Source of the DNA: Oscillospiraceae bacterium
GTDB taxonomy: Bacteria; Bacillota; Clostridia; UBA1381; UBA9506
DNA length: 64,000 nt
NCBI GenBank assembly: GCA_015068555.1
Contig: SVKI01000001.1
Coordinates: 21,093 to 85,092 of the forward strand
Direction of reading: 5' to 3'
Each line of letters begins with the position of its first letter. Position 1 is the stretch's first letter. A program made the position numbers and the translations under genes. The notes under the pieces were generated by a model that saw only the letters and a list, made by a program, of their open reading frames with translations, was not told the DNA's origin and searched no databases. Positions 8,691 to 30,740 of the stretch are shown piece by piece.

Positions 8691-8718
8691 AAAGGCACTT
8701 GTCTCATGTGCCTTTTGG
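8691..8718 (+). terminator. Intrinsic terminator-like hairpin after the beta-helix gene
   Basis: AAAGGCAC-ttgtctcat-GTGCCTTTT begins immediately after the TAA at 8688-8690. Confidence 0.55.
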
Positions 8719-8840
8719 GTAACAAGGGATGTTAGCCAGGGGGAGAAGAAAGAGCATACTTCGATTTTCTCCTCTTGGCGCACCCTTCGTCACAAGCACA
8801 GGAGACAGTATAATAGATTCCTTTGAGAAAGGAGATTTTA

Positions 8841-13742: not shown

Positions 13743-16700
13743 AAAAGCTATTAGCACTTATTTTGAGTATAATACTGATTGTAGGCCTTTGCCCCATGCA
13801 AGCGGCCGTTGTTTCAGCTGCTGAAGATGAAAACGTTGCTTTGGGACTAGTGCCAACCTGTAAAGAGGACAGAGAAGGAAATATTATAACAAACTTAACA
13901 GACGGAAATCCGTTAAGCATATGGTCAGGACCTGCCGGAATAGATCAAAACTGGGTTATGCTTGACCTCGGTGTGCCCCATGTTATCAGTCAGGTTATTC
14001 TGCATGTGCGTGTCGATGTAAATGCTGACTATTACCGTGAGGCGGCAAACCTCGAACTTTCTAACACACCGGATTTTGCACAAAAGGTTGTGTATGAAGC
14101 ATTCCCGAGCATTGACCCGGAAACCGGTGAGCCTTATGAAATTACCATTAAAGATAAAAAGGCGTATCGATATGTGCGTGTCATCAAAACCAACAGTGTT
14201 ACTTTGACCTTTAATGAATTTGAGGTGTACGGTTCAGTTCCTACAAATGAACTGAAAATTGGTGACGATATCGTGGGGACTTCTATCGAAGGTCCGGCAA
14301 CCTTACTTGCGCATCTTGGATTGATGGGCATGAAGGATCCGGATAATACCCTGTTTGTAAAGGATGCTATTTTCACCCGTGCAGAGGCTGTTGCAGCTGT
14401 TGTTGATGCGTTTGCGGGCAATGTCAGCTTCTCAGGTGGCATCCCCTTCAACGATGTTGACAAAGCTCATCCTTATTATATGGATGTGATGACAGCTTGT
14501 CATCTGGGTTATATTACGGGCGATAACAATACAACCTTCCGACCGGATGATTATGTAACGACAACTGAATTTTTGTTCATAACGCTCCGTGCTATGGGAT
14601 ATGATGATGTAATTGAGAAGTTATTTGGAAATGACCCGGGTCGCGTGATTAACCTGACAGAGAAGTTAAAGCTGTTAAAGGGTGTTACGGTTGAAAGTTA
14701 TAATGCCCCGGTTACACGCGGTCAGGCGGCAGTTATCTTTTATAACGCACTTTTAGCTCCTGAATTTAATATGTTTGCGGCACAGGAAGGTTTTCTTACC
14801 TTCAGTGATGAAGCCGACATGTTAAGACGCAATCATGGCTTGGTTCTGATTCAGGGTATTGTTGAAGAAAACAGAATCACCAATTTAGAGGGCGATGCGA
14901 AAGCAAACAAAAATTCAGCTAAAATTAGCGGAAGAAAATTTGTAGATCCCGAAGGGAAACTGGATAACTTCTTGGGTAAAGAAGTCATAATTGCAACCGA
15001 TGTTGACGGCTCCGGAGAAATTGTGCTGGCATGGTCTACACAGAAGGAGCAGGAGATTGTCATTCCCGCATCGGCTCTCTGCTCTGATGTAGCGGACATT
15101 GAAGCCGGTCGCATCGTTGCCTACGATGAAGATGGGGATGAAGAGTCTTATGTACTTGAATCACCCGTCAGAGTGATTAAAAATGAACTGTCGTATCCTT
15201 ATTTTGCACCGGAAGACTTGTTGATTACCAACGGCCAGCTGAGGCTATTGGATAATGACCGTGATGGTGTGTATGAGGTTGTGTTCCTTGAAGAGTATTC
15301 TCTGCATTATATAGAAAGTGCTTTCTATGATGATAACACCTTTACCTTTGTTGATTCTGAAGGCGTGCGTAAGGTTTTAGATCGGGAAAATCTGGTTGTG
15401 GCTGCCAGTGACGGGAACAGTATTGGTCTCAGAAGAGTTGCTTCCGGAACAGTTATTAAATTGTTTGCTTCAAATGACGGCTCATTCAATAGAATTGTTC
15501 TATATGATACACCGGTTATTGGAAAACTGACTGCGTATAGTATGACGGAGGCTTCTGTAGATGGTGTTCGTTATGGTTTATCCTTGAGTTACCAAAACAC
15601 GATTCTTGAGAATGAACCCGTTCCGGGTGAGCCGGTTAGTGCGTTTGTTGATGAAGCGGGAGACATTCTGTGGATTGAGCGCGATACAAAAGCAATCAAT
15701 GACGGCTGGGTGATTGCATTTTCACAGCAAACAGCTGTTGGTAGCGGTCTTTCACCCAAGCTCGGCTTCAGAATGTTTACACAAGATGCAAAATGGGTAG
15801 AAGCTTATGTGGGAGACAAGGTTGTTGTTGACGGCGTAAGCACAACGAAGGATAACCTAACCAAGATGATTGCTGATGATAGCGAAAATCGATTTACCGG
15901 CGCATTGCTTCGTTATAAGCTGAATACGGCGGGTCATTTAGCACAGATCGACACGCAGGTAGAAACAGCGGCAGAGGCAAAGCTGGGTGCAAGCTTTGGA
16001 AAAGGCCTGTTGGTTATGGAAGGCATGTATACAAGTGGTTCTGCCGGATTCTGGAACGGCCATACCATGGTTACCCCTGCAAAGAGTGACACACCGACCT
16101 TTGTGATTCCTACAGTGAACAGCGAATTTACAACAGATTCATCTTATGATAGCTTATACTATGTTCGCAACCTTTCCAGCATGCTGACATCGCATCAGCA
16201 GCGTTCTGATTACAATCTGCAATCGTATATGCCGGATGAGGACGGATATCCTGCTTGCTTTATGAAGACGCAGAATTACAGTGCATCTGTTGGTGAATCT
16301 ACCGAGTCAATGGTAGGTATTAACAGCACGAACGCACCGTTTATGTTGGTTGAAAAAGCAGTTTACAGCACAACGCCGGATGGCGAAGTAGGATTTAAGC
16401 TGACCGGACGCGTGATTACAAGTTCCGGTCTGGGAGCAGAAAGTTCCATTATAGCCAATGCGGAATCATCTATGATTGAATCAGGCTTGTTATATCAGGA
16501 ACAGCCGGATTGCCTGAATGAGAGTAATCTTGTTATTGAATCGGCGATTGGTTCTTTGACGCCTACACAGATTGATCGATATGTAAATTCGGTTACAGAT
16601 ATTGGCTTTGGCGATATTATTCGCTATGAGGCCGGTTCTTCGACAGTTCGTACGGTTGAGAGATACTTTGACTATGATGAAAAAGAACCTGCTGGTGCCG

Positions 16701-17017
16701 GTGATAATCCGAAGGGTGCTGTTTGGCATATTTCAGGTAATAATATTTCTCACTACAGCGGCTATTATCGCTTCCAGATTGGTGAAATCATGGATGTGAG
16801 TGATAATGCGATTACAGTTAAAACTGTTTTCGGTAATGAGGAAATATATCCCAAAAATGCATTTGCAAATGTTGTTGTTTGCGAAAAGAGCGGAACCAAA
16901 TATAAAATAGGTTCTGTTACGAATTTGGGACAGTATGAAGGTGCTAATGTACAGATTATGTTGTACTCATACAACGGTGCACCGAGAGCTGCATGTATTT
17001 ATCCATATTATGAATAA
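13739..17017 (+). CDS. Secreted surface protein: N-terminal discoidin-like domain, three SLH repeats, long uncharacterized C-terminal region
   Basis: Its ATG overlaps the upstream stop (ATGA at 13739-13742). Signal peptide MKKLLALILSIILIVGLCPMQAAVVSAAED. The discoidin-like segment reads NLTDGNPLSIWSG...WVMLDLG...YRYVRVIKT...FNEFEVYG. SLH-like repeats follow (FTRAEAVAAVVDAF; HPYYMDVMTACHLGYITGDNNTTFRPDDYVTTTEFLFITLRAMGY; VTRGQAAVIFYNALL). Confidence 0.7.
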   Translation: MKKLLALILSIILIVGLCPMQAAVVSAAEDENVALGLVPTCKEDREGNIITNLTDGNPLSIWSGPAGIDQNWVMLDLGVPHVISQVILHVRVDVNADYYREAANLELSNTPDFAQKVVYEAFPSIDPETGEPYEITIKDKKAYRYVRVIKTNSVTLTFNEFEVYGSVPTNELKIGDDIVGTSIEGPATLLAHLGLMGMKDPDNTLFVKDAIFTRAEAVAAVVDAFAGNVSFSGGIPFNDVDKAHPYYMDVMTACHLGYITGDNNTTFRPDDYVTTTEFLFITLRAMGYDDVIEKLFGNDPGRVINLTEKLKLLKGVTVESYNAPVTRGQAAVIFYNALLAPEFNMFAAQEGFLTFSDEADMLRRNHGLVLIQGIVEENRITNLEGDAKANKNSAKISGRKFVDPEGKLDNFLGKEVIIATDVDGSGEIVLAWSTQKEQEIVIPASALCSDVADIEAGRIVAYDEDGDEESYVLESPVRVIKNELSYPYFAPEDLLITNGQLRLLDNDRDGVYEVVFLEEYSLHYIESAFYDDNTFTFVDSEGVRKVLDRENLVVAASDGNSIGLRRVASGTVIKLFASNDGSFNRIVLYDTPVIGKLTAYSMTEASVDGVRYGLSLSYQNTILENEPVPGEPVSAFVDEAGDILWIERDTKAINDGWVIAFSQQTAVGSGLSPKLGFRMFTQDAKWVEAYVGDKVVVDGVSTTKDNLTKMIADDSENRFTGALLRYKLNTAGHLAQIDTQVETAAEAKLGASFGKGLLVMEGMYTSGSAGFWNGHTMVTPAKSDTPTFVIPTVNSEFTTDSSYDSLYYVRNLSSMLTSHQQRSDYNLQSYMPDEDGYPACFMKTQNYSASVGESTESMVGINSTNAPFMLVEKAVYSTTPDGEVGFKLTGRVITSSGLGAESSIIANAESSMIESGLLYQEQPDCLNESNLVIESAIGSLTPTQIDRYVNSVTDIGFGDIIRYEAGSSTVRTVERYFDYDEKEPAGAGDNPKGAVWHISGNNISHYSGYYRFQIGEIMDVSDNAITVKTVFGNEEIYPKNAFANVVVCEKSGTKYKIGSVTNLGQYEGANVQIMLYSYNGAPRAACIYPYYE

Positions 17018-17137: not shown

Positions 17138-18700
17138 ATGATTATTGATATTGGTAATCGCAGAGAGGTTTTTTGGGATGATTATCTAGTGGATACGGAG
17201 GCTACGACGGCGGCGCTCACGATGCATAAGCCAGTAAAAAAGGAGATAGCCTATGTGTTTGATAAACCTTGGGAAACGAAGATTTTCAGCTATCCGCATT
17301 ATATTGAGTGGCAGGGTGAATGCCTGATGTATTACATTGCCGGTGTGCCTTGTAAGCAGCCCCTTAGACTTTCGAAGGACTTTAACAAGGAAGTGTCTGC
17401 CTTAAAATGCGTTTGTTTGATGAAGGGGCCGGACCCGTTCCATTTGGAAAGACCTAATTTGGGACTTTATGAAGTGAATGGTAGCAAGGACAATAATGTT
17501 TTGTTACAGCAGCGGTGCGAGGGTGACCTTGAAGAAGAATTTGATAATTTTTACGTATTTATTGATGAGAATCCTGATTGCCCGGCCGATGAGAAAATTA
17601 AAGCGCTGGCGCAGCAGATTAATCACAGCAAAGGTTTCCCAGGATTTCGTGAACTATGGTGCTACACATCAGGTGATGGCATCAACTTTAAGCTCGGCTG
17701 GAAGTTATCGGGTGCTGACGAGCCGTTTGCCGGCCTGTTTGACTCTTTAAACACCGCGCATTATGATAAAGAAGCAGGCGTTTACAGAATGTATGTACGT
17801 GGATTGCATTTAGGCTATGGTGTTGCGGCATCGGCCAACGAAACAGGTCTTGTGACTGCAGAAATGGAGAAAGACTTAGCAGCAGATGGCATTCGCGATA
17901 TCCGTTATATGGAATCAAAAGACTTTAAGACTTGGACCGTGCCCAGACAGATTTCCTACAATGATGATTATGATTTCCCTTTATATACCAATACTGTGCA
18001 GAAATATGCACGCGCGCCACATATGTATCTCGGTTTTCCAACTCGTTATGTAGAGCGTAAGAGATGGACGGGAAATTTCGACCAGTTGGGTGGCGAAGAA
18101 AACGTTGCCTGGAGAAAAGAGAGAATGGAGAGCAGTCCCCGCCACGGTCTAGCTGTTACCGATGCTATTTTTATGAGCTCGAGAGACGGTTTTAACTGGC
18201 ACCGTTTCCCCGAAGCGTTTGCAGGTGCGGAGCCGGAGCATGCTCACAACTGGGTATATGGTGATGCATATTTTATGAATAATGTGATGGAAACGCCTTG
18301 TGAGGCACCGGAGGTTGGGACAGAAATTTCGCTTTTTGCTAAAGAACTTAACCGCGAATACAGAATGCTGCGGCATTACACCTTGCGCCTTGACGGTTTT
18401 GCTTCTTATCATGCTGATTATGATGTGAAGGTGCTTGAGACAAAGCCGATTATCTATGACGGCAGCGAGCTTTCGATTAACTTTAAGACCTCTGCAATCG
18501 GATTTATGTATATTGATATTTTAGATGAGACAGGTAAGCCGATTGACGGTTATCATAGCTGTGAACTTTTTGGCAATACCACCGATAGAACTGTTTACTT
18601 TGGTGATGGTAAGGATGTTTCGGCACTTAGCGGCAGACCAGTGAAACTGCGGTTTACCATGCGTGATGCAGATATCTATTCCTTCATTTTCAGAGATTAG
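17138..18700 (+). CDS. Uncharacterized cytoplasmic protein, paralog A (propeller-plus-beta-sandwich glycosidase-like architecture is only a guess)
   Basis: RBS GGAGGGAAG. 520 aa with no signal peptide. Colinear with 19843-21405 without indels. The N-terminus GNRREVFWDDYLVD...KPWE and the C-terminus LRLDGFASYHA...VKLRFTMRDADIYSFIF resemble poorly characterized glycosidase-like families, but no family is firmly recognised. Confidence 0.4.
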   Translation: MIIDIGNRREVFWDDYLVDTEATTAALTMHKPVKKEIAYVFDKPWETKIFSYPHYIEWQGECLMYYIAGVPCKQPLRLSKDFNKEVSALKCVCLMKGPDPFHLERPNLGLYEVNGSKDNNVLLQQRCEGDLEEEFDNFYVFIDENPDCPADEKIKALAQQINHSKGFPGFRELWCYTSGDGINFKLGWKLSGADEPFAGLFDSLNTAHYDKEAGVYRMYVRGLHLGYGVAASANETGLVTAEMEKDLAADGIRDIRYMESKDFKTWTVPRQISYNDDYDFPLYTNTVQKYARAPHMYLGFPTRYVERKRWTGNFDQLGGEENVAWRKERMESSPRHGLAVTDAIFMSSRDGFNWHRFPEAFAGAEPEHAHNWVYGDAYFMNNVMETPCEAPEVGTEISLFAKELNREYRMLRHYTLRLDGFASYHADYDVKVLETKPIIYDGSELSINFKTSAIGFMYIDILDETGKPIDGYHSCELFGNTTDRTVYFGDGKDVSALSGRPVKLRFTMRDADIYSFIFRD

Positions 18701-19842: not shown

Positions 19843-21405
19843 ATGTATATCAATATCGGCAACAGGCGAGAGGTTTTATGGGATGATTTTTTGGTGGATA
19901 CTGAAAAAACAACAGCAAAACTGACACTGCATAAACCGACTAAGAAGGAACAAGTTTATACCTTTGATAAATTTTGGGAAGCAAAAGGTGTGAGTTATTT
20001 CAGCTATATCAAATGGCAGGGAGAGTATTACGTTTATTATACCTGCGGCATTCCCGGTGATGAACAATTTAAGCAAGCCAATGACGTTAATAAAGAAATC
20101 AGCAGTATGCGCGGTTTGTGCCTTATGAAGGGACCGGACTTATTCCACTTGGAACGTTATAATGTCGGCATGTTTGAGGTGAACGGAAGCCGTGAAAACA
20201 ATTTGATTAAGTTGCGGAGAAAAGACGGCACCTTTGAGGAGGAACTGGACAACTTTTTTGTATTTTTAGATGAAAACCCCGATTGTCCGCCGGATGAAAA
20301 AATTAAGGGTATTGCGCAAACGGTGAATCATGAAAAAATATTCCCGGGTTTTCGTGAACTTTGGTGCTACACATCGGGAGATGGCATAAACTTTAAATTG
20401 GGTTGGAAGCTATCCGGTGCTGATGAACCCTTTGCGGGTTTGTTTGACTCGGAAAACACGGCGCATTATGATAAAGAAGCCGGCGTTTACAGAATGTATG
20501 TACGCGGATTGCATTTGGATTATGGTCCGGCGGTTACTGCTAACGAAGATGGCTTGGTGTTAAAGCACATGGAAAAATCTCTGGCGACAGATGGCATTCG
20601 TGATATTCGGTACATGGAGTCGAAGGACTTTAAAACATGGACTGTGCCTCAACGCATTTCTTACAGTGATGCAGATGATTATCCTTTGTACACAAATGGC
20701 ATCAAGCGCTATGAACGTGCGCCGCATATGTATATTGGTACCGCTACACGATATACCGAGCGCAAGAGATGGACAGCCAATTATGATCAGTTGGGTGGTT
20801 CGGAAAATGTTGCCTGGAGAAAAGACAGAATGGCTATTGGACCTCGTATTGGTTTGGCGATTACGGATGCTGTGTTTATGTGTTCGCGCGATGGCTTACA
20901 GTGGACGAGATTTCCTGAGGCCTTTATGGGCGGAGAACCGGAGAGTGCATACAACTGGCTTTATGGCGACGTTTACCTGATGTATAATTTGACAGAGACG
21001 CCTTGTGAGGCGCCCAGCACGGAGACGGAACTTTCGATTTTTGCAGAAGAACATGTGCAGAAAACCTGTAAAGCACTACGTCGCTATACATTGCGTTTGG
21101 ATGGATTTGCTTCGTATCATGCTGACTACGATGTGAAGACTTTAGAAACCAAACCCATCATTTATGATGGACAGGAGCTTTCGATTAACTTCTCGACTTC
21201 TGCAATTGGCTTTGTGTATGTTGACATTTTAGATGAGTCTGGTAAGCCGATTGACGGTTATCATAGCTGTGAACTTTTTGGCAATACCACCGACAGAACT
21301 GTTTACTTTGGTGATGGTAAGGATGTTTCGGCACTTAGCGGCAGACCGGTTAAACTGCGGTTTACTATGCGTGATGCGGATATCTATTCTTATATTTTCA
21401 GATAA
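19843..21405 (+). CDS. Uncharacterized cytoplasmic protein, paralog B of 17138-18700
   Basis: RBS GGGAGGAAAC. Same 520-aa length as paralog A, at a constant offset of 2705 nt. The last ~180 nt are near-identical to the paralog A 3' end. Confidence 0.4.
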   Translation: MYINIGNRREVLWDDFLVDTEKTTAKLTLHKPTKKEQVYTFDKFWEAKGVSYFSYIKWQGEYYVYYTCGIPGDEQFKQANDVNKEISSMRGLCLMKGPDLFHLERYNVGMFEVNGSRENNLIKLRRKDGTFEEELDNFFVFLDENPDCPPDEKIKGIAQTVNHEKIFPGFRELWCYTSGDGINFKLGWKLSGADEPFAGLFDSENTAHYDKEAGVYRMYVRGLHLDYGPAVTANEDGLVLKHMEKSLATDGIRDIRYMESKDFKTWTVPQRISYSDADDYPLYTNGIKRYERAPHMYIGTATRYTERKRWTANYDQLGGSENVAWRKDRMAIGPRIGLAITDAVFMCSRDGLQWTRFPEAFMGGEPESAYNWLYGDVYLMYNLTETPCEAPSTETELSIFAEEHVQKTCKALRRYTLRLDGFASYHADYDVKTLETKPIIYDGQELSINFSTSAIGFVYVDILDESGKPIDGYHSCELFGNTTDRTVYFGDGKDVSALSGRPVKLRFTMRDADIYSYIFR

Positions 21406-22342: not shown

Positions 22343-22609
22343 ACAAAAAAAGACAGAGCGCATATGCGGAATATTCTTAAGGACACAAAACCCCTTGATT
22401 TCTATGAAATCAAGGGGTTTTTCAGGCTCCCTTGTGTAATACCCCTTCGGGGCACGCGAGGGAGCAGTCAAATTTTTGATTTGACTGAGGGATTGTAGTT
22501 GACAACCCTTCCGACAAAACCTATGGTTTTGCCACCTTCCCTTACACAGGGAAGGCTATATCTCTGTCCTTAAAGACACTCAGCATACGCGCTCTGTCTT
22601 TTTTTTGTT
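22343..22609. repeat. About 265-bp hairpin-rich intergenic element bounded by ~45-bp imperfect terminal inverted repeats (MITE-like or structured RNA)
   Basis: The left end AAAAAAAGACAGAGCGCATATGC...TTAAGGACA matches the reverse complement of the right end (TGTCCTTAA...GCATACGCGCTCTGTCTTTTTTT). Internal perfect hairpins include CCCCTTGATTTC-tatg-GAAATCAAGGGG, GTCAAAT-ttttg-ATTTGAC and CCTTCCC-ttacaca-GGGAAGG. Confidence 0.6.
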
Positions 22610-22621
22610 CTGGCGTTTTGT

Positions 22622-23257
22622 TTATAGATTTGTTTTGCGGGAGACTGCAAGTGTTTTATAGATAATAGGTGCCAGCAAAACTGTGATAAGGATTTCCGGC
22701 ACCATATAAAGTCCGTTATAAAAGATAGAATAAATAAGTGCCAGTCCCGTTCCGGAGAAGGTATTCATAATCGTGCTTCCTATGGTATAGAACCCATCCT
22801 GGGTAAAAAACCATTCAGCCCAGCTGCCGAAAAAGACAGCACCGGAAATGATATGCAGGATGTAGCGCAGAAGAGGCGCTAGGCATGCACCGAGAGTCAT
22901 AGCGGTTAAACCGTTTTTGACTCTTTTTTTAAATATGCCGCCAAAGCCTAAGACTGTGTAGGCGAGGATGTAATCAATCAAACAAATTAAGATGGCAGCA
23001 AACAGGTTCATCTGGCTTTCGCCGGGCAGGAAAAAGGCGGACACGGTTTTCAGACCGAGCAAAAGCTGTAAAAGACTGAAAATAAAGGCGGAAAACAGGC
23101 CCCAGCGCGTGCCGTAGCAATAGGCGATGACAATGATGGGTAACATGGACCCGATTGTGATGCCGCCGCCAAAAGGCAACTGTAAGGGTTGAAAAATGGA
23201 CAGGACTGTGCCAATAGCAATGAGCATGGCTGTGGTGACAAGGCGTTTTGTTTTCAT
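22622..23257 (-). CDS. thiT: ECF-transporter S component for thiamine (ThiT-like)
   Basis: ATG at 23257 follows the RBS GGAGAAATCACC. It is a multi-TM protein starting MKTKRLVTTAMLIAIGTVLS and containing LRYILHIISGAVFFGSWAEW. A TPP riboswitch lies directly upstream. The track ORF start at 23380 would run through the riboswitch terminator and is rejected. Confidence 0.75.
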   Translation of the reverse strand: MKTKRLVTTAMLIAIGTVLSIFQPLQLPFGGGITIGSMLPIIVIAYCYGTRWGLFSAFIFSLLQLLLGLKTVSAFFLPGESQMNLFAAILICLIDYILAYTVLGFGGIFKKRVKNGLTAMTLGACLAPLLRYILHIISGAVFFGSWAEWFFTQDGFYTIGSTIMNTFSGTGLALIYSIFYNGLYMVPEILITVLLAPIIYKTLAVSRKTNL

Positions 23258-23299
23258 GGTGATTTCTCCGTTTTTTAGGGGTGGCGCATCTGATTCCTT

Positions 23300-23345
23300 G
23301 CAAAAAAAAGCAGAAATTGCGTGGGGCAATTTCTGCTTTTTTTTG
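23300..23345 (-). terminator. Intrinsic terminator acting as the expression platform of the TPP riboswitch
   Basis: The minus strand reads AAAAAAAAGCAGAAATTGC-cccac-GCAATTTCTGCTTTTTTTT, between the aptamer and the thiT RBS. Confidence 0.8.
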
Positions 23346-23349
23346 CAAT

Positions 23350-23432
23350 GTGAAATATTCCCTACGTTGGCATTACCCAAATCAGGTTGCGGGTCGAATA
23401 TAATTCCTCTCAGTCTTGCGACTCCCCGATAC
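23350..23432 (-). promoter_or_regulatory. TPP (THI-box) riboswitch aptamer
   Basis: The minus strand reads TATCGGGGAGTCGCAAGACTGAGAGGAATTATATTCGACCCGCAACCTGATTTGGGTAATGCCAACGTAGGGAA. It contains the conserved CUGAGA, ACCUGAU and GGUAAUGCC..CGUAGGGAA blocks. Confidence 0.9.
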
Positions 23433-23449
23433 TTATTTAACTTGGCTAT

Positions 23450-23478
23450 AGTATATCATACTTGCCTTGCAATGTCAA
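23450..23478 (-). promoter_or_regulatory. Sigma-A promoter for the riboswitch-thiT transcript
   Basis: On the minus strand: TTGACA (23478-23473), a 17-nt spacer, then TATACT (23455-23450), about 20 nt upstream of the aptamer. Confidence 0.7.
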
Positions 23479-23618
23479 GCCTTGCAAAAAACAACAAAGG
23501 TTTTGTTTTTGGGGTAAAACGGTGTAGGTTTCTATGCGATAACTATACAATTTTGATGTTTTGCATTTTGGGAAATTTTTTTTTGCTATACTGTCAGCGC
23601 GATGAGGGAGGTGATAGC

Positions 23619-25073
23619 GTGCAAGGTACAGGCAGTAATTTAGGGCATTATGTAATGGAGCTTTTGGCAAGACCGGTTATGGAGCTTGATGAACAAGACG
23701 CAAGTCAAGGTGGAGAAGACAGCGAGATGAATATAGCGCGGGCGTTGGTGAAAAAGGCAAGTGCAGGGGATCTACAGGCTATCAAAGAGATTAGAAGCCT
23801 GACTGAAAATTTGGGGATTCAGGAAAAACAAGAATTTCAGATGCCGGCTAAGATGCTTGCTGAACCGTATCTTTCCGTATGGCGTGACATCAAAAACAGG
23901 ATGCATACAGAATATGTTTTATACGGCGGACGTGGTAGTGCGAAATCGACCTTTATCAGCCTGATGATTGTAGACCTTTTACTTTCGAATCCTACGCTTC
24001 ATGCGGTTTTATGCAGGCGCGTTAAAGACACCTTACGGGATAGTGTTTATGCACAGATGAAGTGGGCTATTGCAGAGCTCGGGTACGAGGCGGAATTTGA
24101 GTGTCGTGTGAATCCTATGGAGATTATTTACAAGCCAACAGGGCAGAAAATCTATTTTCGAGGCGCGGATGATCCGGCAAAATTAAAATCCATTAAGGTG
24201 CCCTTTGGTTATATCGGCATTTTATGGTTTGAGGAGCTTGACCAGTTTTGTGGGGAGGAGGAAATCAGAAGTATTGAGCAATCGGTGATACGCGGTGGTG
24301 ACGAGGCCTACATTTTTAAATCCTTTAATCCCCCCAAAACAGCAGGCAATTGGGCAAATCAATATGTGTTATTGCCTAAGGAGAACCGGTTGGTAAAAAA
24401 AACAACCTATCTGGAGATTCCGCCGGAATGGTTAGGCAGGGTGTTTTTAGAGGAAGCAGAGCATTTGCGGGAAACAAATCCCCTGGCGTATGAACACGAA
24501 TACGAAGGGGTGGCAAATGGCGCCGGTGGGAACGTGTTTACCAATTTGACTGTTAGGGAAATTACGGATGCAGAAATTAACAGCTTTGACAGAATATATA
24601 ATGGCATTGACTGGGGCTGGTATCCGGATCCGTTTCGATTTCATCGGATGGCACATCTGGCTTCTGAAAGAAAGTTGTTTATTTTTGACGAGGTGAGCGG
24701 TAATAAATTGCCAAACCGAGAGATTGCAAATCTTTTGCGACAAAAGGGAATTGGACAGACAGATAAAATTACGGCTGATTCAGGCGGGGAAGGATTAAAA
24801 TCAATTGCAGATCTCAGGGAGATGGGCTTCTCTGTTCGTAGGGCAAAAAAGGGGCCGGGAAGCGTTGACTATTCGATGAAATGGCTTTCTTCACTACAGG
24901 AGATTATTATTGACCCGAAGCGATGTCCGGAGGCGTCAAAAGAGTTTATGCACTATGAATATGAGATGACAGAAAGTGGTGCGGTGGTGAGCGGATATCC
25001 GGACCGTGACAACCATTCCATTGATGCTGTGCGGTATGCATTAGAGGAAGTTTGGAGGAGAAGAGGAAAATGA
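23619..25073 (+). CDS. Phage terminase large subunit (PBSX-type) with an unusually long N-terminal extension
   Basis: GTG at 23619 lies 8 nt after GGGAGG. The Walker A motif reads VLYGGRGSAKST, and a C-terminal nuclease-like region reads DNHSIDAVRYALEE. The track ORF from 23196 is an antisense read-through across thiT and the riboswitch. Confidence 0.85.
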   Translation: MQGTGSNLGHYVMELLARPVMELDEQDASQGGEDSEMNIARALVKKASAGDLQAIKEIRSLTENLGIQEKQEFQMPAKMLAEPYLSVWRDIKNRMHTEYVLYGGRGSAKSTFISLMIVDLLLSNPTLHAVLCRRVKDTLRDSVYAQMKWAIAELGYEAEFECRVNPMEIIYKPTGQKIYFRGADDPAKLKSIKVPFGYIGILWFEELDQFCGEEEIRSIEQSVIRGGDEAYIFKSFNPPKTAGNWANQYVLLPKENRLVKKTTYLEIPPEWLGRVFLEEAEHLRETNPLAYEHEYEGVANGAGGNVFTNLTVREITDAEINSFDRIYNGIDWGWYPDPFRFHRMAHLASERKLFIFDEVSGNKLPNREIANLLRQKGIGQTDKITADSGGEGLKSIADLREMGFSVRRAKKGPGSVDYSMKWLSSLQEIIIDPKRCPEASKEFMHYEYEMTESGAVVSGYPDRDNHSIDAVRYALEEVWRRRGK

Positions 25074-26422
25074 TGGAATTAGAAACAAGTTACGCAATGA
25101 TGATGCAAAGCATTGAAAAAGTTCTTGGGAAAAAGGTTTTGGTATCTGACAAGATGAAAGATGCAATGATTCTGTGGGATAAGCTCTACAGATGTCAGGC
25201 ACCATGGCAAAAGGAAGAAGTGAAGAGCTTGTGTTTGGCGCCTACAGTGGTAAGTGAATTGGCCTGTCAGACAACGCTGGATTTTTCTTCTGTTATTTCC
25301 GGCAGCGAGCGCGCAGATTACCTAAATGAAAGTGTGTATCAGGAAACACTTGCAGATATCAGACAATGTGTGGAATACGCGTGTGCCTGTGGGGGATTGG
25401 TTTTTAAGCCCTATGTAGATAATGGCAAGCTTGCTGTTGAATATGTGCGTGCCAATGCGTTTTTTCCTATAGAGGTAGATTGTCGCGGGAAAATTATTTC
25501 TGCTGTCTTCACAGAGCAAAGAAGAAAAGGACTTCGATTGTTTACAAGGCTGGAGGTACACACGTTAGAAAAAGAAGGCGTTCGCACTCGAAATCTTGTT
25601 TTAGAAGGCGGGGCGTTTGTAGGCGGCGGTCGTCTAACTACCTTGCGCGAAGTGGAGGAATGGGCAGACCTTGCGGAAGAGGTTCTGCTTACCGGTGTCA
25701 AACAGCCACTGTTTTCATACCTTAAGATGCCGATAGCCAATACGGTTGATCCACAGTCGGCGCTCGGTGTTTCCATCTATTCACGAGCCGTTGGGCTTAT
25801 GGAGGAGGCAGATTTGCAGTTTTCGCGCTTATTGTGGGAATATGAAGGTGGCGAACTGGCCGTTGATGCAAGCGTGGATGCCCTGTTGATGGAAAATGGC
25901 GATATAAAGATGCCGGGATTAAAAAAACGTTTATTCCGGGCGTTGGATGTGGACACAGGCGGTGGTGATCTTTACAGTGTGTTTGCACCGCCGCTCAGAG
26001 ACGAATCCTATTTGAACGGATTGATGGAACTACTTATGCGAGTGGAAGATTTATGCGGTCTTGCACGCGGTACCTTTTCCAATTTAAATGGGTCTGCCAG
26101 GACGGCTACAGAGTTGAATATTCTCAGGCAGAGATCGTATTCCACGGTAACAGATATTCAAAAAGCCGTAGAAAGATCCTTACGTGACCTGGTTAAGGCT
26201 TTGGAAACAATGGCAACTGTTTTTGATCTTGTGCCGGAAGGACATTGTGATATTACCTTTTCCTTTGATGATAGCGTTGTGACAGACAGGGCATCTCAGT
26301 TTGAAGAAATGCAGCTTTTGGTATCACAGGGAATTCTGGATAAGTGGGAATTACGCAGTTGGTATTTAGGTGAAACGGAAGAACAGGCGAAAAAGAATTT
26401 GCCTGTTATAGAAAAAGAATAA
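25070..26422 (+). CDS. Phage portal protein (SPP1 gp6-like)
   Basis: An ATGA overlap joins it to the terminase stop, with RBS GGAGGAG. Its size (~450 aa) and position directly after the terminase fit a portal. The segment SLCLAPTVVSELACQTTLDF is typical of portals in Firmicute siphophages. Confidence 0.7.
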   Translation: MMELETSYAMMMQSIEKVLGKKVLVSDKMKDAMILWDKLYRCQAPWQKEEVKSLCLAPTVVSELACQTTLDFSSVISGSERADYLNESVYQETLADIRQCVEYACACGGLVFKPYVDNGKLAVEYVRANAFFPIEVDCRGKIISAVFTEQRRKGLRLFTRLEVHTLEKEGVRTRNLVLEGGAFVGGGRLTTLREVEEWADLAEEVLLTGVKQPLFSYLKMPIANTVDPQSALGVSIYSRAVGLMEEADLQFSRLLWEYEGGELAVDASVDALLMENGDIKMPGLKKRLFRALDVDTGGGDLYSVFAPPLRDESYLNGLMELLMRVEDLCGLARGTFSNLNGSARTATELNILRQRSYSTVTDIQKAVERSLRDLVKALETMATVFDLVPEGHCDITFSFDDSVVTDRASQFEEMQLLVSQGILDKWELRSWYLGETEEQAKKNLPVIEKE

Positions 26423-26554
26423 AGAAAATGTGCCTCTTGTCTTTGGGCAAAAGACGTTAAACAGGCCCACATGCCGCCTGTGTCGGCGGCTTAAAAATAG
26501 ACGGTGTTTTACGGAGCGGCCGGCCGAGAGACATCAGAATAGAAAGGAGACGTA

Positions 26555-27088
26555 ATGATTGAGCTGATTAAGGAGTTATTTGGTGAGGAAGTAACAGAAG
26601 AAAAAGTTTTAAAGCTACAAGAAATGCTCGAACAAAACTATGTATCACGCGCTGATTTTGAAAAGCTGCAGTCCGAATTCACAGATATGAAAACGCAGCA
26701 TGCTACAGAATTGGCAGAGAAAGAAGAGCAGGCAGACCAAGAAAAATTTATGATCCTGCTACAGCATGCCTTAGAAAAGGCAGGTGCAAAGAATCAGAAA
26801 GCTGTTTTAGCTCTGCTATCTATGGAAGGCTTGCGTTATGAAAACGGACAGATCAAAGGTCTTTTAGAACAGCTGGAGGAATTAAAGCGTGAAAACGGTT
26901 ACTTGTTTGAGGAAAAAGCCGGTTTTGTACAGTTTGTGCGTCCGGGGTCTTCCAGTCGTTCAGAGATTACAGAGGAAGATTTCAGAAATATGAGCTACAT
27001 GGAAAAGTTAAAGCTCAAAAAGGAACAACCGGCTTTGTATCAGGAATTTATAAAAAAAACAGGAGGTAAATCATGTCGACTTATTTAA
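26555..27088 (+). CDS. Phage scaffolding protein (GP20-like coiled coil)
   Basis: RBS AAAGGAGA. The 177-aa protein is strongly charged and helical, and lies between the portal and capsid genes. Confidence 0.6.
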   Translation: MIELIKELFGEEVTEEKVLKLQEMLEQNYVSRADFEKLQSEFTDMKTQHATELAEKEEQADQEKFMILLQHALEKAGAKNQKAVLALLSMEGLRYENGQIKGLLEQLEELKRENGYLFEEKAGFVQFVRPGSSSRSEITEEDFRNMSYMEKLKLKKEQPALYQEFIKKTGGKSCRLI

Positions 27089-28092
27089 ACTTTCCATTTG
27101 ATCAGGAGATTTTCTTACACAGTTGGGAGGCTGCACCCGATCCGACAAAAACAGCTATGATTGATAGTGGTGCACTGGTAGAGGATGCTATGATTGAGGC
27201 ACGCATTCAAAATGATGGTTGCCTTTACACCATTCCTTTTTACAGTGCGTTAGACGGTGAACCGGACAATTATGACGGTGCAACAGATATTATGGCTCAG
27301 GAACCCGTGGGTGGCAGTCAGACCGGTGTTGTATACGGCCGCGGTAAAGGCTTTACGGCGCGCAATTTTGCGGCAGAACTTTCCGGTGGTGATCCGCTTG
27401 GCCATATTGCCACTACAATCGGCAAATATTGGGCAAAACAGCGCCAGAAAAACCTGCTTGCCATTTTAGAAGCAATTTTTGGTATTACCGGTAGCGGCAA
27501 TGCTAAGAAGTGGCAGGAAAATCACGTAGTTGATTTAACCAAGGAAGCATCTGCTGCCTATACCATCGGTGCAACAGATTTAAACGATTTGGCTACAAAA
27601 GCATTGGGCGACAACAAGAATCTGTTTTCTCTGGCTATTATGCATTCTGATGTTGCTAAGACCCTGGAAAATCTGCAGCTTTTAGAGTTCTGGAAGTACA
27701 CAGATGCAAATGGTATTCAAAGACCTGCGTCTATTGCCTCTGTAAGCGGCTTTACCGTTGTGATTGATGATGGCGTACCTGTTGACCGCACCAGCGAAAG
27801 CGGTACACCTGCTTACACCACATACCTTTTGGGTGAAGGTGCTATCAGAACTGCTAAAGCCAGAGTGGATGTACCGGCTGAGGTACATCGCGATCCCAGT
27901 GTTAACGGTGGTCAGGATACATTATATACCAGAATTCGCGAGACAATTCATCCGAACGGTTTCTCGTTTAATGTACCTGGTAGCGATTGGACCAATAGCC
28001 CGACCGATGCACAATTAGGTGCAACAGCAAACTGGTCAATCTCCTTTGATCCTAAGGCAATTCCTATTGCTAAGCTTGTAACAAACGGTTAA
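27073..28092 (+). CDS. Phage major capsid protein (putative HK97-fold)
   Basis: RBS GGAGG 7 nt upstream. It overlaps the scaffold gene by 16 nt. Its size (339 aa) and position fit a capsid, but no specific family is recognised by eye. Confidence 0.6.
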   Translation: MSTYLNFPFDQEIFLHSWEAAPDPTKTAMIDSGALVEDAMIEARIQNDGCLYTIPFYSALDGEPDNYDGATDIMAQEPVGGSQTGVVYGRGKGFTARNFAAELSGGDPLGHIATTIGKYWAKQRQKNLLAILEAIFGITGSGNAKKWQENHVVDLTKEASAAYTIGATDLNDLATKALGDNKNLFSLAIMHSDVAKTLENLQLLEFWKYTDANGIQRPASIASVSGFTVVIDDGVPVDRTSESGTPAYTTYLLGEGAIRTAKARVDVPAEVHRDPSVNGGQDTLYTRIRETIHPNGFSFNVPGSDWTNSPTDAQLGATANWSISFDPKAIPIAKLVTNG

Positions 28093-28217
28093 TGTTGAAT
28101 GTGGGGCGGGAGGGAGGAAAGAGCGTATGATAGATTATTCATATTATAAAGATACATGGTAAAATAATTCTCACAAGCACAGCAACAACAGGTGTTGTAT
28201 ACGCTAAAATCGGTAGC

Positions 28218-28688
28218 GTGTTTTTTGAAAAGGGAAAAACATATCATAGAGCAATTTTAGAACAGGAAAATACATTCAGTTATCCTTATTTTAAGAAAAA
28301 CGATTTTATGCCGTATTATCCTACCTTTCCGATAGAGGAAGATATCTCGCTGGATGTGGGTGTATATATGGAAGATATTAGTCAAGTCGGTAATGTTGCA
28401 AGCATTTATATTCAAATTGAGGAAGGGCCGGAAGCTCCGGTCGAATATACAAAGTACATAGAAGATATAACCGAAGTTACTGTAACGAAACAGACGGATG
28501 GCGGAGTGGAGGAAGCTTATACACCGCGTGCTGACGGCGTTGTGGAGGGCGTTATGTCTTCCTCGCCTTCTATGTTGCTTTCTGCAAATACAAACGATGC
28601 TGTTATAAACTGTACATATAATGTTGATACAAACAAGGCGATTGAGCGCCTGACAGATGCGATTATTTCATTAGGAGGGAACGTATAA
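28218..28688 (+). CDS. Phage hypothetical protein, possibly the 3' remnant of a tail-fiber/baseplate-region gene
   Basis: The GTG start has no convincing RBS. The gene lies just before an XkdX-like ORF, as in PBSX-type late regions. The true N-terminus is uncertain. Confidence 0.35.
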   Translation: MFFEKGKTYHRAILEQENTFSYPYFKKNDFMPYYPTFPIEEDISLDVGVYMEDISQVGNVASIYIQIEEGPEAPVEYTKYIEDITEVTVTKQTDGGVEEAYTPRADGVVEGVMSSSPSMLLSANTNDAVINCTYNVDTNKAIERLTDAIISLGGNV

Positions 28689-28891
28689 TGTTTAATTTGA
28701 GAGATTTTATTAAAAAGGGCTTACTGGATGCAATAGGTAAAATGGCGGATTATCAGGTTATCTTACATGCGGTTGGCTGGCATGAGAAGGGCGTTTTGAC
28801 AGAAGATGACCTGGCTGAAATTAACGCAGTCATTGGGGAGCAACACCTGAATATAGAAGAGGCTCCGCACCAAGCAGAAGGGAGCCAATAA
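28688..28891 (+). CDS. XkdX-like small phage protein
   Basis: 67 aa. The ...GWHEKGVLTEDDLAEINAVIGE pattern resembles XkdX-family proteins, which sit between tail-fiber genes and the lysis cassette. The start overlaps the upstream stop. Confidence 0.45.
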   Translation: MFNLRDFIKKGLLDAIGKMADYQVILHAVGWHEKGVLTEDDLAEINAVIGEQHLNIEEAPHQAEGSQ

Positions 28892-28907
28892 GGGAGGTTG
28901 ATTGGTC

Positions 28908-30122
28908 ATGAAGGTGTTTATTGACGCCGGACACAATTATACGGGTCATGATACCGGTGCTCAGGGCAACGGCTTAAAAGAGCAGGAGGTTAGTTTTACC
29001 ATCGCCGACTATTTGCGTTTGTTGCTTTTAGAGGCTGGTCATAATGTTAAAATGAGCCGGAACAGTATGACAGATTCTGTAGGGAATACGGTTTCTTCCA
29101 GCATAGGCGGTCGTGCAGCGCAGGCAAATGAATGGGGAGCAGATGTATTTCTTTCCATTCATTGCAATGCCGGGGGCGGACGCGGAACAGAGTGCCTGAT
29201 ATATGGCCGTGGCGGAACATCAGAAGAATATGCTACCGGGATTCAAAGAACCATTGTAGATAGATTGGGCACTATGAACAGGGGTGTAAAAGTCAGAGCC
29301 GAACTGGGCGTTTGGCGATTGACTTCCATGCCGGCAGTTTTGATTGAAACGGCTTTTATCGACAATGAAGCAGATGCAAGACTTTTGCGAGATCAGCCGG
29401 AGAATTTTGCCCTTGCCATTTTTGAAGGATTACTTGAAAAAATGGATCAGAAATCCATAGAAAACAATACGAACCAAACAGTTATGAGGTTACCTTCTGA
29501 GGTTTATGTACAGGAAATAGAGCCGGAAAACTTTGATATTTTGGTATGTGATGCAAAAAAACGAAGCGTAGCTAAAAACAGATATTTTAACGGCGGTTAT
29601 TTTGCAGTGCAGGCAGACGGCAGCACAATACCGGTAGGAAATCTGGCATCAGAAGGTGTTATTGTGGCGCAGGCAAAGGACAATCCGGCATGGATTAATC
29701 TGTCACAAAAGGCCCTCACGACGATCTACACGGTTAAAGACTATGAAAAGGACCGTTTTTTTTGCTATATATCAAAGACTGACAGGTTAGAGAATATTCC
29801 GGGATTAAGATCTGCGATTTCCGGCATTCCCATTATTTTTAACGGAAAATTCGTACCTTATGAAGCGATTTTAGCAGAAGGTTATTTTGGTAATGAACTA
29901 TATGATACATGGCATGGATTTTTGGGTATACGTAACCAAAAGCTTTGTTATGTTGCTATGAAATGCGGTTTTGAAGAAATGTGTTGGGCATTGGTTGCTT
30001 TGGGTATCTACGATGCCATTAAGTTAGACGGTGGCGGTTCATTTATTCTGCATGACATAAAAGAGCTTTCCGGTACTTATGAAAACAGAAGAATTCACAA
30101 TGTGGGAGTGTGGACCTCATGA
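28908..30122 (+). CDS. Endolysin: N-terminal N-acetylmuramoyl-L-alanine amidase (Amidase_3) plus C-terminal phosphodiester-glycosidase-like (NAGPA/DUF2233-like) domain
   Basis: ATG at 28908 follows GGGAGG. The amidase part reads FIDAGHNYTGHDTGA...LSIHCNAGGGRGTE...IETAFIDNEADA. The C-terminal part reads FNGGYF...LGIRNQKLCYVAMK...ALGIYDAIKLDGGGSFIL. Confidence 0.75.
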   Translation: MKVFIDAGHNYTGHDTGAQGNGLKEQEVSFTIADYLRLLLLEAGHNVKMSRNSMTDSVGNTVSSSIGGRAAQANEWGADVFLSIHCNAGGGRGTECLIYGRGGTSEEYATGIQRTIVDRLGTMNRGVKVRAELGVWRLTSMPAVLIETAFIDNEADARLLRDQPENFALAIFEGLLEKMDQKSIENNTNQTVMRLPSEVYVQEIEPENFDILVCDAKKRSVAKNRYFNGGYFAVQADGSTIPVGNLASEGVIVAQAKDNPAWINLSQKALTTIYTVKDYEKDRFFCYISKTDRLENIPGLRSAISGIPIIFNGKFVPYEAILAEGYFGNELYDTWHGFLGIRNQKLCYVAMKCGFEEMCWALVALGIYDAIKLDGGGSFILHDIKELSGTYENRRIHNVGVWTS

Positions 30123-30382
30123 ATGAAGCATATCGTCCCATTCGAAGAGAATGCAAGGAAGAATTTGAGAAACTTCATAAGCGGATTGATAAGAGAGATA
30201 AGCTTTTGGGTGAGCAGGAGGACAGATTACAGGCACACGGTGAATCTCTGGCGCGCATGAGTGAGGATGTGATTCATGTAACACAATCTATTAGTGGTCT
30301 TACAAAAGCATTGTGGGGTGTGACGGGTTCATTGCTTGCTACTTTGTTCGGATTTTTAATCTGGTATGTGCAGTCAATATAG
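30119..30382 (+). CDS. XhlA-like lysis accessory protein (coiled coil plus C-terminal TM helix)
   Basis: An ATGA overlap joins it to the endolysin stop. The N-terminus is charged and helical, and the C-terminal TM helix reads LWGVTGSLLATLFGFLIWYV. Confidence 0.55.
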   Translation: MNEAYRPIRRECKEEFEKLHKRIDKRDKLLGEQEDRLQAHGESLARMSEDVIHVTQSISGLTKALWGVTGSLLATLFGFLIWYVQSI

Positions 30383-30394
30383 AAGGAGGATTCT

Positions 30395-30703
30395 ATGTAC
30401 GATTACATGAAAGAATTCATTAAACCGGAGTTTTTAATTCTGGTTCCGGTACTTTACGTTTTGGGTATGTCATTAAAAAAATCAAAACTGCAGGATCATT
30501 TAATTCCTTTGATTTTAGGTGTTGTTTCTGTTGCGCTTGTAATACTTTACATAGTAGCAACAAGCAGCGTTGACAATTGGCAAAGTATCTTGCTAGCGGT
30601 TTTTTCAGGGTTGACCCAAGGGATTCTTTGCGCCGGTGCCAGCGTGTATGTGAACCAGCTAATTAGACAACGGCAAAAGAAAAATGACAGTGAAAAATCG
30701 TAA
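30395..30703 (+). CDS. Phage holin
   Basis: RBS GAAGGAGG. 102 aa with predicted TM helices (FLILVPVLYVLGM, LIPLILGVVSVALVILYIV, ILLAVFSGLTQGILCAGA) and a basic tail. Confidence 0.65.
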   Translation: MYDYMKEFIKPEFLILVPVLYVLGMSLKKSKLQDHLIPLILGVVSVALVILYIVATSSVDNWQSILLAVFSGLTQGILCAGASVYVNQLIRQRQKKNDSEKS

Positions 30704-30704
30704 A

Positions 30705-30740
30705 AGAAAAAGAGAAGTCACTTGGTGACTTCTCTTTTAT
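30705..30740. terminator. Bidirectional intrinsic terminator shared by the holin (+) and tkt (-) genes
   Basis: AAAAGAGAAGTCAC-ttgg-GTGACTTCTCTTTT. Confidence 0.8.

Follow-up and report, generated by a model that had tools for sequence, protein, structure and literature searches.

A head-and-lysis module without tail genes in gut Oscillospiraceae, a probable recent deletion derivative of a conserved, thiT-linked, siphovirus-derived operon

The stretch of DNA considered here, hereafter the window, comprises 64,000 nucleotides of contig SVKI01000001.1 (assembly GCA_015068555.1) from an Oscillospiraceae bacterium, and holds a phage-derived module in which head and lysis genes are found together without tail genes. 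The module proper extends from about 23540, where its predicted promoter begins, to the end of its terminator at 30738 (coding part 23619-30703), beside a thiT-type thiamine transporter gene of the host. Genes were called from the listing of open reading frames (ORFs) of the 64-kb window, which is the sequence inspected, and from profile searches (Pfam, PHROGs), while the relatives, which are metagenome-assembled genomes (MAGs) throughout, were compared through their gene contexts and a tblastn synteny map, the fetched loci being labelled here with L numbers. The missing tail genes of the module most probably reflect a recent deletion rather than the evolution of a system built on capsids only, and the result of interest is the complete parent operon kept by the relatives, a candidate new family of elements similar to gene transfer agents (GTAs) in uncultured gut Oscillospiraceae.

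The retained genes, all on the plus strand, begin with the large subunit of the terminase (TerL, 484 amino acids (aa), 23619-25073; Pfam Terminase_3 and Terminase_3C, E 3e-38). It is followed by an SPP1 gp6-like portal protein (450 aa, 25070-26422; phrog_533, E 1.4e-102, and PF05133), whose ATG at 25070 overlaps the TerL stop as ATGA, by a head scaffolding protein (177 aa, 26555-27088; PF06810, E 3e-20, and phrog_194), equal in length to those of the closest relatives L012 and L014, and by an SPP1 gp13-like major capsid protein (MCP, 339 aa, 27073-28092; phrog_247, E 2.8e-78, and PF20036), which is 76-85% identical to those of the family members. After the two scars described below, a small conserved protein of 67 aa (28688-28891) is encoded, 74-86% identical to an ORF of 61-64 aa found at the same position, between fibre and endolysin, in L005, L010, L015, L024 and L046; it has no Pfam or PHROG match and may be XkdX-like, a reading taken from the protein itself rather than from a database. 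The lysis cassette starts with an endolysin of the N-acetylmuramoyl-L-alanine amidase type (404 aa, 28908-30122; Amidase_3, PF01520, E 2.7e-36, and phrog_435), with a weak NAGPA-like domain at its C-terminus; its motifs DAGHN, SIHCNA, GTE and ETAFIDN, unbroken in the alignment with the relatives, can be read as the zinc and catalytic motifs. A small coiled-coil protein with a C-terminal transmembrane segment (90 aa, 30110-30382) is 42% identical to the ORF at the equivalent position in L023, and the cassette ends with a Hol44 holin (102 aa, 30395-30703; PF16079, E 4.6e-24, and phrog_1129), 59-73% identical to the 97-aa holins of the relatives.

An earlier note on this DNA had described the TerL, portal, scaffold, MCP, endolysin and holin genes as intact, with ribosome-binding sites (RBSs) and ATGA-type coupling, and this description holds, each of them having its profile match and a Shine-Dalgarno sequence being present before every retained gene. 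The XhlA-like character which it gave to the 90-aa protein is weakly supported (phrog_1193 'hemolysin', E 0.0045, and the C-terminal transmembrane segment). The note had also seen no genes for an integrase, a repressor, replication, a stand-alone small terminase, connectors or a tail, and none was found in the profile searches of the window; outside the module the window contains no further phage genes, the rest being host housekeeping and glycan-related genes.

Two scars, overlooked in that note, lie between the MCP and the 67-aa protein. The first (28127-28162, plus strand) is the stub of the head-tail adaptor gene, the first of the head-completion genes; its RBS and 11 codons (MIDYSYYKDTW*) are left, and they can be aligned with the beginning of this gene in L012, L014 and L015. 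The second (28158-28688, plus strand) is a 3' remnant of 176 codons of a tail-fibre or receptor-binding gene, the last 55-85 aa of which are 45-60% identical to the C-termini of the fibre proteins of the relatives (403-552 aa). From 28158 onwards the window reads in the frame of the fibre gene, the left breakpoint being 28157/28158. The remnant has no Shine-Dalgarno sequence and its first possible start is the GTG at 28218; the 156-aa ORF thus opened (28218-28688), for which no Pfam or PHROG family was matched either, is to be regarded as a presumptive tail-fibre fragment and not as a gene. On the geometry of L010 and L015, the missing stretch measures ~7.3 kb, from adaptor codon 11 to about fibre codon -176. 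The junction is crossed unchanged in sequencing runs X1, X2 and X3 and, since it is 100% identical in three independent contigs of other metagenomes, it is not an assembly artefact; six further assemblies in all thus agree on it. The connector and tail genes were lost in one deletion, and the loss of a connector-to-tail block, as had been proposed, is borne out by the stub and the remnant, by the block retained in the closest relatives and by a contig of run X8 that appears to be un-deleted.

Some further observations concern the surroundings of the junction. Three loci from different metagenome assemblies (L001, L002 and L003) end at the same base, 28236, which lies 144 nt past the MCP stop and just after a weak terminator-like hairpin with a T-run (28199-28229); this was treated as an assembly coincidence, contigs of other runs crossing 28236 unchanged. 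A 16-nt direct repeat (15/16), present inside the MCP gene (27322-27337) and again 30 nt beyond the breakpoint on its right side (28188-28203), is probably due to chance. In run X7, a low-depth Logan contig connects 35272 with 28143 through 10 extra letters; it may be a chimeric unitig or reflect a rearrangement close to the junction in another strain.

The MCP has hundreds of homologues, and those with 75-87% identity come from MAGs that bear the label Oscillospiraceae or Clostridia bacterium; where samples are labelled, they are colon or caecum of sheep, goat and water buffalo, and uncultured human-gut MAGs are also among them. In the GTDB-based collection used, the family amounts to about 20 species-level genomes. 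The complete operon of the relatives is ~14 kb long and invariably begins at TerL, behind a conserved box. Its gene order is TerL, portal, scaffold and MCP, then four small genes (according to PHROGs a head-tail adaptor, one unassigned, a tail-completion protein and a probable tube protein of 163 aa), a Gp15-like protein of 190 aa, a protein of 377-390 aa weakly similar to tape measure proteins, Dit, Tal, one to three fibre genes and, finally, the lysis part with the 61-64-aa ORF, the endolysin and the holin. The complete block from adaptor to fibre is kept by all the relatives, including the closest one (85% MCP identity).

No related locus in the ~20 species contains an integrase, a repressor, a replication gene or a separate small terminase, and in the family loci host genes stand directly upstream of the promoter. 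Where the contig extends far enough, thiT is the upstream gene in all but L023 and L033; L031 and L052, which are more distant, have no thiT match. The earlier suggestion that a decaying prophage had lost its left arm finds no support in these loci, since no such module exists in the ~20 related species, all of which begin at TerL. IMG/VR lists the cluster as 'viral' units of 13-14 kb, and MCPs 60-68% identical occur on viral contigs of 30-48 kb, which are most simply read as complete temperate siphophages, likely of the ancestral type. Scans of metagenomes and IMG/VR, which added few close family members, yielded no other tail-less copy. The best MCP match in the phage database (57% identity) is MT836094.1 (L004), an unannotated 'Bacteriophage sp.' of 18,988 bp from human faeces.

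The true start of TerL is the GTG at 23619, after the RBS GGGAGGTGA, as in all the relatives (481-485 aa), the upstream ATG of the long ORF being wrong. The first ~97 aa form an N-terminal extension conserved across the family. The closest phage TerLs (L073, L072 and L057, 55-59% identity) are fusion ORFs of small (TerS) and large subunit, and their N-termini carry helix-turn-helix (HTH; Terminase_5), Terminase_2 or phrog_509 domains, with E values down to 6.5e-88. The HTH, Terminase_2 and phrog_509 domains of these fusions were not found in the family TerL by profile search, and no ORF for TerS exists in the 180 nt between the thiT riboswitch and TerL. A missing DNA-recognition domain suggests that the family TerL may package DNA in a sequence-independent, headful manner. 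That residues 1-72 are a TerS remnant is a weak possibility at best, the profile comparison with the Terminase_2 and phrog_509 parts of the fusions not being significant. As regards the fusions themselves, the terminase ORFs of Clostridia prophages L072 (3445-5583), L073 (3003-4925), L057 (3513-5282) and L055 (501-2147), of 548-712 aa and uninterrupted through Terminase_3, seem to be fusions of TerS and TerL that arose naturally.

In the family operons, the 60 nt before TerL comprise an imperfect palindrome (TGCAA-N-TTGCA), a GC-N2-TTTGGGAAA box, a T-run and an extended -10-like element (TGnTAGGAT). In the window, this conserved promoter region (23561-23592, plus strand) consists of the box TTGCATTTTGGGAAA (23561-23575), the T-run and the extended -10-like element TGcTATACT at 23584-23592. 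The box is unchanged in 16 family members, 45-60 nt upstream of TerL, and its 15-mer is found a single time in the window and a single time in each family locus, in the same place throughout, and nowhere else in the 255 fetched loci. Because a non-coding motif has been conserved across genomes with saturated synonymous sites, the box argues for regulated expression of the operon from this predicted promoter. A sigma-H-like assignment of the box was considered and dropped, its spacing being ambiguous, and no public RNA run contains the capsid gene.

Gene lengths are near constant across the family. In the Nei-Gojobori analysis, synonymous differences are saturated (pS 0.68-0.79) and pN amounts to 0.12 for the MCP and 0.15 for TerL, versus 0.17 for thiT, with nominal dN/dS values of 0.05-0.3 for every gene, tail genes included. 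Moreover, the host genes on the left flank are shared within parts of the family. L010, L022, L024, L026 and L033 have three of them in common (316-aa/PIG-L/C_GCAxxG), two at 81-100% identity and the faster-evolving C_GCAxxG protein at 57-92%, and L008 and L018 share four; pairwise identity of TerL, portal and MCP follows that of thiT (Mantel r 0.66, p 0.0006). Two features of GTAs are found here: vertical inheritance with purifying selection, which applies to the family and not to the lineage of the window after the deletion, and a structural cluster free of integration, excision and replication functions and bordered by host genes on both sides, in the window as well as in the ~20 relatives. 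Because of its length conservation, strong purifying selection and co-divergence with the flanking host genes, the parent operon is, as far as its sequences indicate, a domesticated, GTA-like element, distinct from the FpGTA of Faecalibacterium prausnitzii.

The deletion itself looks young and polymorphic within the species. A 179-nt contig of run X8, a gut metagenome of 2024, is identical to 28039-28157 and then continues with ACCACGGCAGAGAGGTTTCTGAAGAAGATT; in the adaptor frame this continuation reads ...KDT-YHGREVSEED, which fits the N-termini of the adaptors of the relatives (e.g. MVQVDYEFYSETYGGTDVPREVF in L015). For the portal, scaffold/MCP, endolysin and host genes of the window, further X8 contigs show 98-100% identity, and X8 thus evidently contains a conspecific strain in which the adaptor gene seems to have been retained. 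Divergence from the window amounts to ~1-2% in the conspecific strains of runs X7, X8, X9 and X11, and all the sequences of the deletion allele are 100% identical to the window. Furthermore, the fibre remnant, promoterless and RBS-less, can still be read through 176 codons without a stop. At family-invariant sites, private changes are few (TerL 3/251, portal 6/166, MCP 0/191) and no more frequent in the window than in tail-bearing members, and the within-species polymorphisms in TerL, portal and MCP comprise 10 synonymous and 3 non-synonymous changes, in strains mostly of unassigned allele. Most likely, the retained genes are intact since there has been no time for decay. The comparison with relatives called for in the earlier note has thus produced intact tail-bearing operons and a low dN/dS in the family, but no signal from after the deletion could be extracted; branch-specific relaxed selection in the window was discarded as a measure, dS being saturated between species and the deletion-allele contigs identical.

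Taken together, the module would have arisen recently, by internal deletion, from a domesticated operon of siphovirus origin that is passed on vertically, a reading to which a probability of about 0.7 may be given. In the parent, the operon would be expressed by a subpopulation of cells from a host-controlled promoter; TerL, devoid of a TerS recognition domain, would fill SPP1-type heads by headful packaging of host DNA, and with the tails attached the result would be short-tailed siphovirus-like particles, released by holin and endolysin. In the window, the deletion of ~7.3 kb took everything from adaptor codon 11 through to the last 176 codons of the fibre, and, if the promoter fires, at most proheads or heads would be made, followed by lysis of the cell. 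In SPP1, gp15 and gp16 (adaptor and stopper) close the portal after packaging and form the docking site for the tail. By analogy, without adaptor and stopper no tail, either its own or that of a helper, could dock in the window allele and DNA would leak; it is because these two proteins are absent that the allele would be a non-producer. The window copy is probably a loss-of-function variant and not a new tail-less system. Non-producers are to be expected where GTAs are produced, and the 'cheater' argument on such variants is cited in bioRxiv 10.64898/2026.07.08.737213. It is a tentative extension, rated somewhat short of even odds, that the thiT-linked operon is an undescribed GTA or PBSX-like system, independent of FpGTA, with the window as a recent 'cheater' allele segregating in the species.

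Several points weigh against this interpretation. The un-deleted conspecific allele consists of one low-depth contig of 179 nt, with 30 of its 60 extra bases displayed. 'Too young to decay' and 'still selected' fit the retained genes alike, and nothing distinguishes between them. A relocated tail locus may exist beyond the 64-kb window, both FpGTA and RcGTA being multi-locus systems. The particle of the parent, its packaging and its expression are predicted from its genes. Only a weak similarity links residues 1-72 of TerL with TerS (phrog_2412, E 0.035), without a significant match in hhalign, and the dN/dS values are only upper-bound-like, dS being saturated. Finally, since the MCP is 60-68% identical to those on the viral contigs of 30-48 kb, the capacity of the head may exceed the 14-kb operon, and the parent would then depart from the classical GTA, whose head takes up less DNA than encodes the particle.

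Among the alternatives, the one that survives best, although we consider it unlikely, is a functional tail-less element whose capsids, possibly filled with DNA, would be freed by the lysis cassette or completed by an unlinked tail or connector locus or by a helper phage, in the manner of a multi-locus GTA or a capsid-forming satellite. All the retained genes, RBSs, promoter box and terminator are indeed intact, inspection covered 64 kb of the genome, head and tail functions are divided among loci in FpGTA and RcGTA (PMC12946183), and a head-plus-lysis cluster without tails has been noted in Butyricicoccaceae (bioRxiv 10.64898/2026.07.08.737213). However, stub and remnant denote a deletion in place and not the transfer of a block, and the adaptor and head-completion genes needed for joining any tail are gone as well. 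Moreover, the un-deleted allele seems to co-exist in the species, the deletion lineage has zero diversity, and the integrase, attachment (att) site or replication module of satellites is absent. The idea of a domesticated element, raised in the earlier note, thus applies to the GTA-like parent operon, but not to the tail-less state, with its fresh scar, its lack of connectors and its apparent polymorphism within the species; the analogy with satellites and helper tails fails, since integrase, att sites and connectors are all missing.

Slightly less probable still is an ordinary decaying prophage remnant, in which case the parent operon would be functionless debris of vertical descent and the window one step further along. 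The absence of integration, replication and lysogeny genes, the clear deletion scar and the lack of the capsid gene in public RNA runs would be expected of such a remnant. What speaks against it is that ~19 genes are intact and conserved in length in ~20 species with saturated synonymous sites, that the promoter box has been kept invariant together with the RBS, and that the MCP and TerL proteins evolve more slowly than the neighbouring host thiT. A third alternative, in which all of the family would be mobile, as a phage satellite or mini-phage targeting the thiT region, is very improbable: the outer flanks differ between distant members and IMG/VR classes the clusters as viral, but there is no recombinase, replication gene or att repeat, left-flank synteny is kept within sub-clades with host-gene identity tracking element identity, L033 keeps the left-flank genes with only thiT missing, and in L023 unrelated host genes abut the promoter.

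The preferred reading, that of a deletion derivative of a domesticated operon, can be set beside several known systems. The parent resembles RcGTA and CcGTA (Rhodobacter capsulatus and Caulobacter) in being a siphovirus-derived head-tail cluster of ~14-15 kb without integration or replication genes, and also in its vertical inheritance, purifying selection, presumed host control and apparent loss of terminase specificity; the TerS of RcGTA is without a DNA-binding domain. The parent differs from RcGTA in the lineage of its proteins, which are unrelated (SPP1 gp13-like MCP, Terminase_3 family TerL), in its Bacillota host, the lack of a separate TerS and the presence of lysis genes inside the operon. 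Furthermore, its capacity may be phage-sized, and its window copy is devoid of connectors and tail. A transfer-competent gene set is absent from the 64 kb of the window and present in the relatives.

GTA-like packaging of fragments of 4.6-8.9 kb has been reported in Ruminococcaceae, Oscillospiraceae (Onthomonas) and Christensenellaceae, as well as 'generalised transduction' fragments of ~35 kb from Oscillospiraceae scaffolds, in a study which also mentions the terminase of RcGTA and in which a locus was identified solely in Faecalibacterium, namely FpGTA (PMC12946183, Nat Commun 2026). FpGTA, as described there, is similar to the present family in belonging to gut Oscillospirales, in its TerL-portal-scaffold-MCP operon and in its holin and endolysin; some strains are, moreover, also without the second (tail/lysis) locus. 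In FpGTA, however, the MCP belongs to the N4-gp56 family and TerL is Terminase_6-like, a Prp protease, a separate TerS and a podovirus-like tail are encoded, and the genes lie in two loci ~125 kb apart; in the family, the MCP is of SPP1 type, TerL belongs to Terminase_3 and the tail is of sipho type (Dit, Tal and tape measure protein), all in a single operon. Identity with FpGTA was rejected on this basis, the two being set apart by annotation and not by sequence comparison, and they are evidently independent domestications. No paper on a thiT-linked sipho-type operon was found in a literature search that was itself incomplete.

The PBSX and skin elements of Bacillus subtilis share with the family the chromosomally fixed, phage-derived particle genes, the Gram-positive host, a PBSX-type (Terminase_3) TerL and a lysis cassette in the style of XhlA, holin and amidase, with a small XkdX-like gene before it. 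PBSX, however, measures ~28 kb, its tail is contractile, and it encodes a repressor (xre) of its own as well as sigma-like regulators and the TerS XtmA, whereas the family operon is ~14 kb long, with a non-contractile tail and no regulators in the cluster. The capsid-forming phage-inducible chromosomal islands (cf-PICIs) are superficially like the window copy, having their own terminase, portal, scaffold and capsid and no tail, but they possess an integrase, regulation and replication modules, TerS, connectors and att sites, and no lysis genes; among these satellite features, integrase, att repeats, replication genes, TerS and connectors are lacking here. With respect to phages, the MCP is homologous (38% identity) to that of phiCD38-2/phiCD146 (C. 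difficile) and Roseburia phage Jekyll, and in these and in IMG/VR prophages the architecture of portal, scaffold and tail module is homologous as well. Such SPP1-gp13-like siphophages differ from the family in their size (~40-47 kb), in their TerS or TerS-TerL fusions and in their lysogeny and replication modules, and the modules of an inducible temperate prophage are absent from the window and from every family member.

If the parent operon is a GTA, it could explain some of the host-DNA packaging seen in the sequencing of virus-like particles from the gut to which no locus has been assigned, and a second, unrelated family would give such packaging observations a testable genetic basis. The promoter box provides a handle for finding the regulator. 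Further, the window copy is a natural knock-out, within a species, of exactly the connector-tail block, and comparing strains that have the deletion with conspecifics that do not could reveal if making particles brings a cost or a benefit.

As for the boundaries of the module, the host neighbour on the left is the thiT-type gene with its riboswitch and promoter (22622-23478, minus strand), outside the element. A Thia_YuaJ gene of this kind stands beside TerL in most family loci. In the window its start lies at ~23257, the thiamine pyrophosphate (TPP) riboswitch at 23342-23438 (minus strand; Rfam RF00059, 65.9 bits), and the promoter found by the promoter scan (TTGACA-17-TATACT, 23450-23478) is divergent from that of the operon, thiT and operon being divergently placed in most of the ~20 related species. 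The possibility that thiT is cargo of the element was ruled out by the flanks of L033, which retains the conserved left-flank genes and lacks thiT alone, of L023, where host genes for HPr kinase, ACT and DUF711 proteins immediately adjoin the promoter, and of the distant L052, where the upstream genes run from glyceraldehyde-3-phosphate dehydrogenase to an HTH gene. On the right the operon ends in a bidirectional intrinsic terminator with a 14-bp stem (30708-30738, no strand assigned), common to the convergent transketolase genes. There is no tRNA in the window, its GC content presents no step, and att-like direct repeats around the module are limited to short chance matches, in agreement with the earlier note, which had seen none.

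Some minor features of the window remain to be mentioned. A perfect 23-bp hairpin (23298-23348) between the TPP aptamer and the thiT start codon is probably the expression-platform terminator of the riboswitch. Between a sugar-phosphate isomerase gene and the end of thiT, the arms of a 41-nt inverted repeat (22345-22385 and 22565-22605, 85% complementary) enclose ~180 nt, including a second perfect hairpin, of 16 bp (22387-22421); the pair could be an insert resembling a miniature inverted-repeat transposable element or a terminator pair. Farther to the left, two paralogues of 520 aa (17138-18700 and 19843-21405), with near-identical N-termini (M.I.IGNRREV.WDD.LVDTE...), flank a gene for 372 aa; three secreted proteins of very large size (1092-1639 aa, 4968-17017) are encoded upstream of them, and this is probably a glycan-degradation locus. 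Finally, a sudden rise of the AT skew to +0.21 to +0.31 in the last 3 kb (61000-64000) coincides with long membrane-protein genes on the minus strand.

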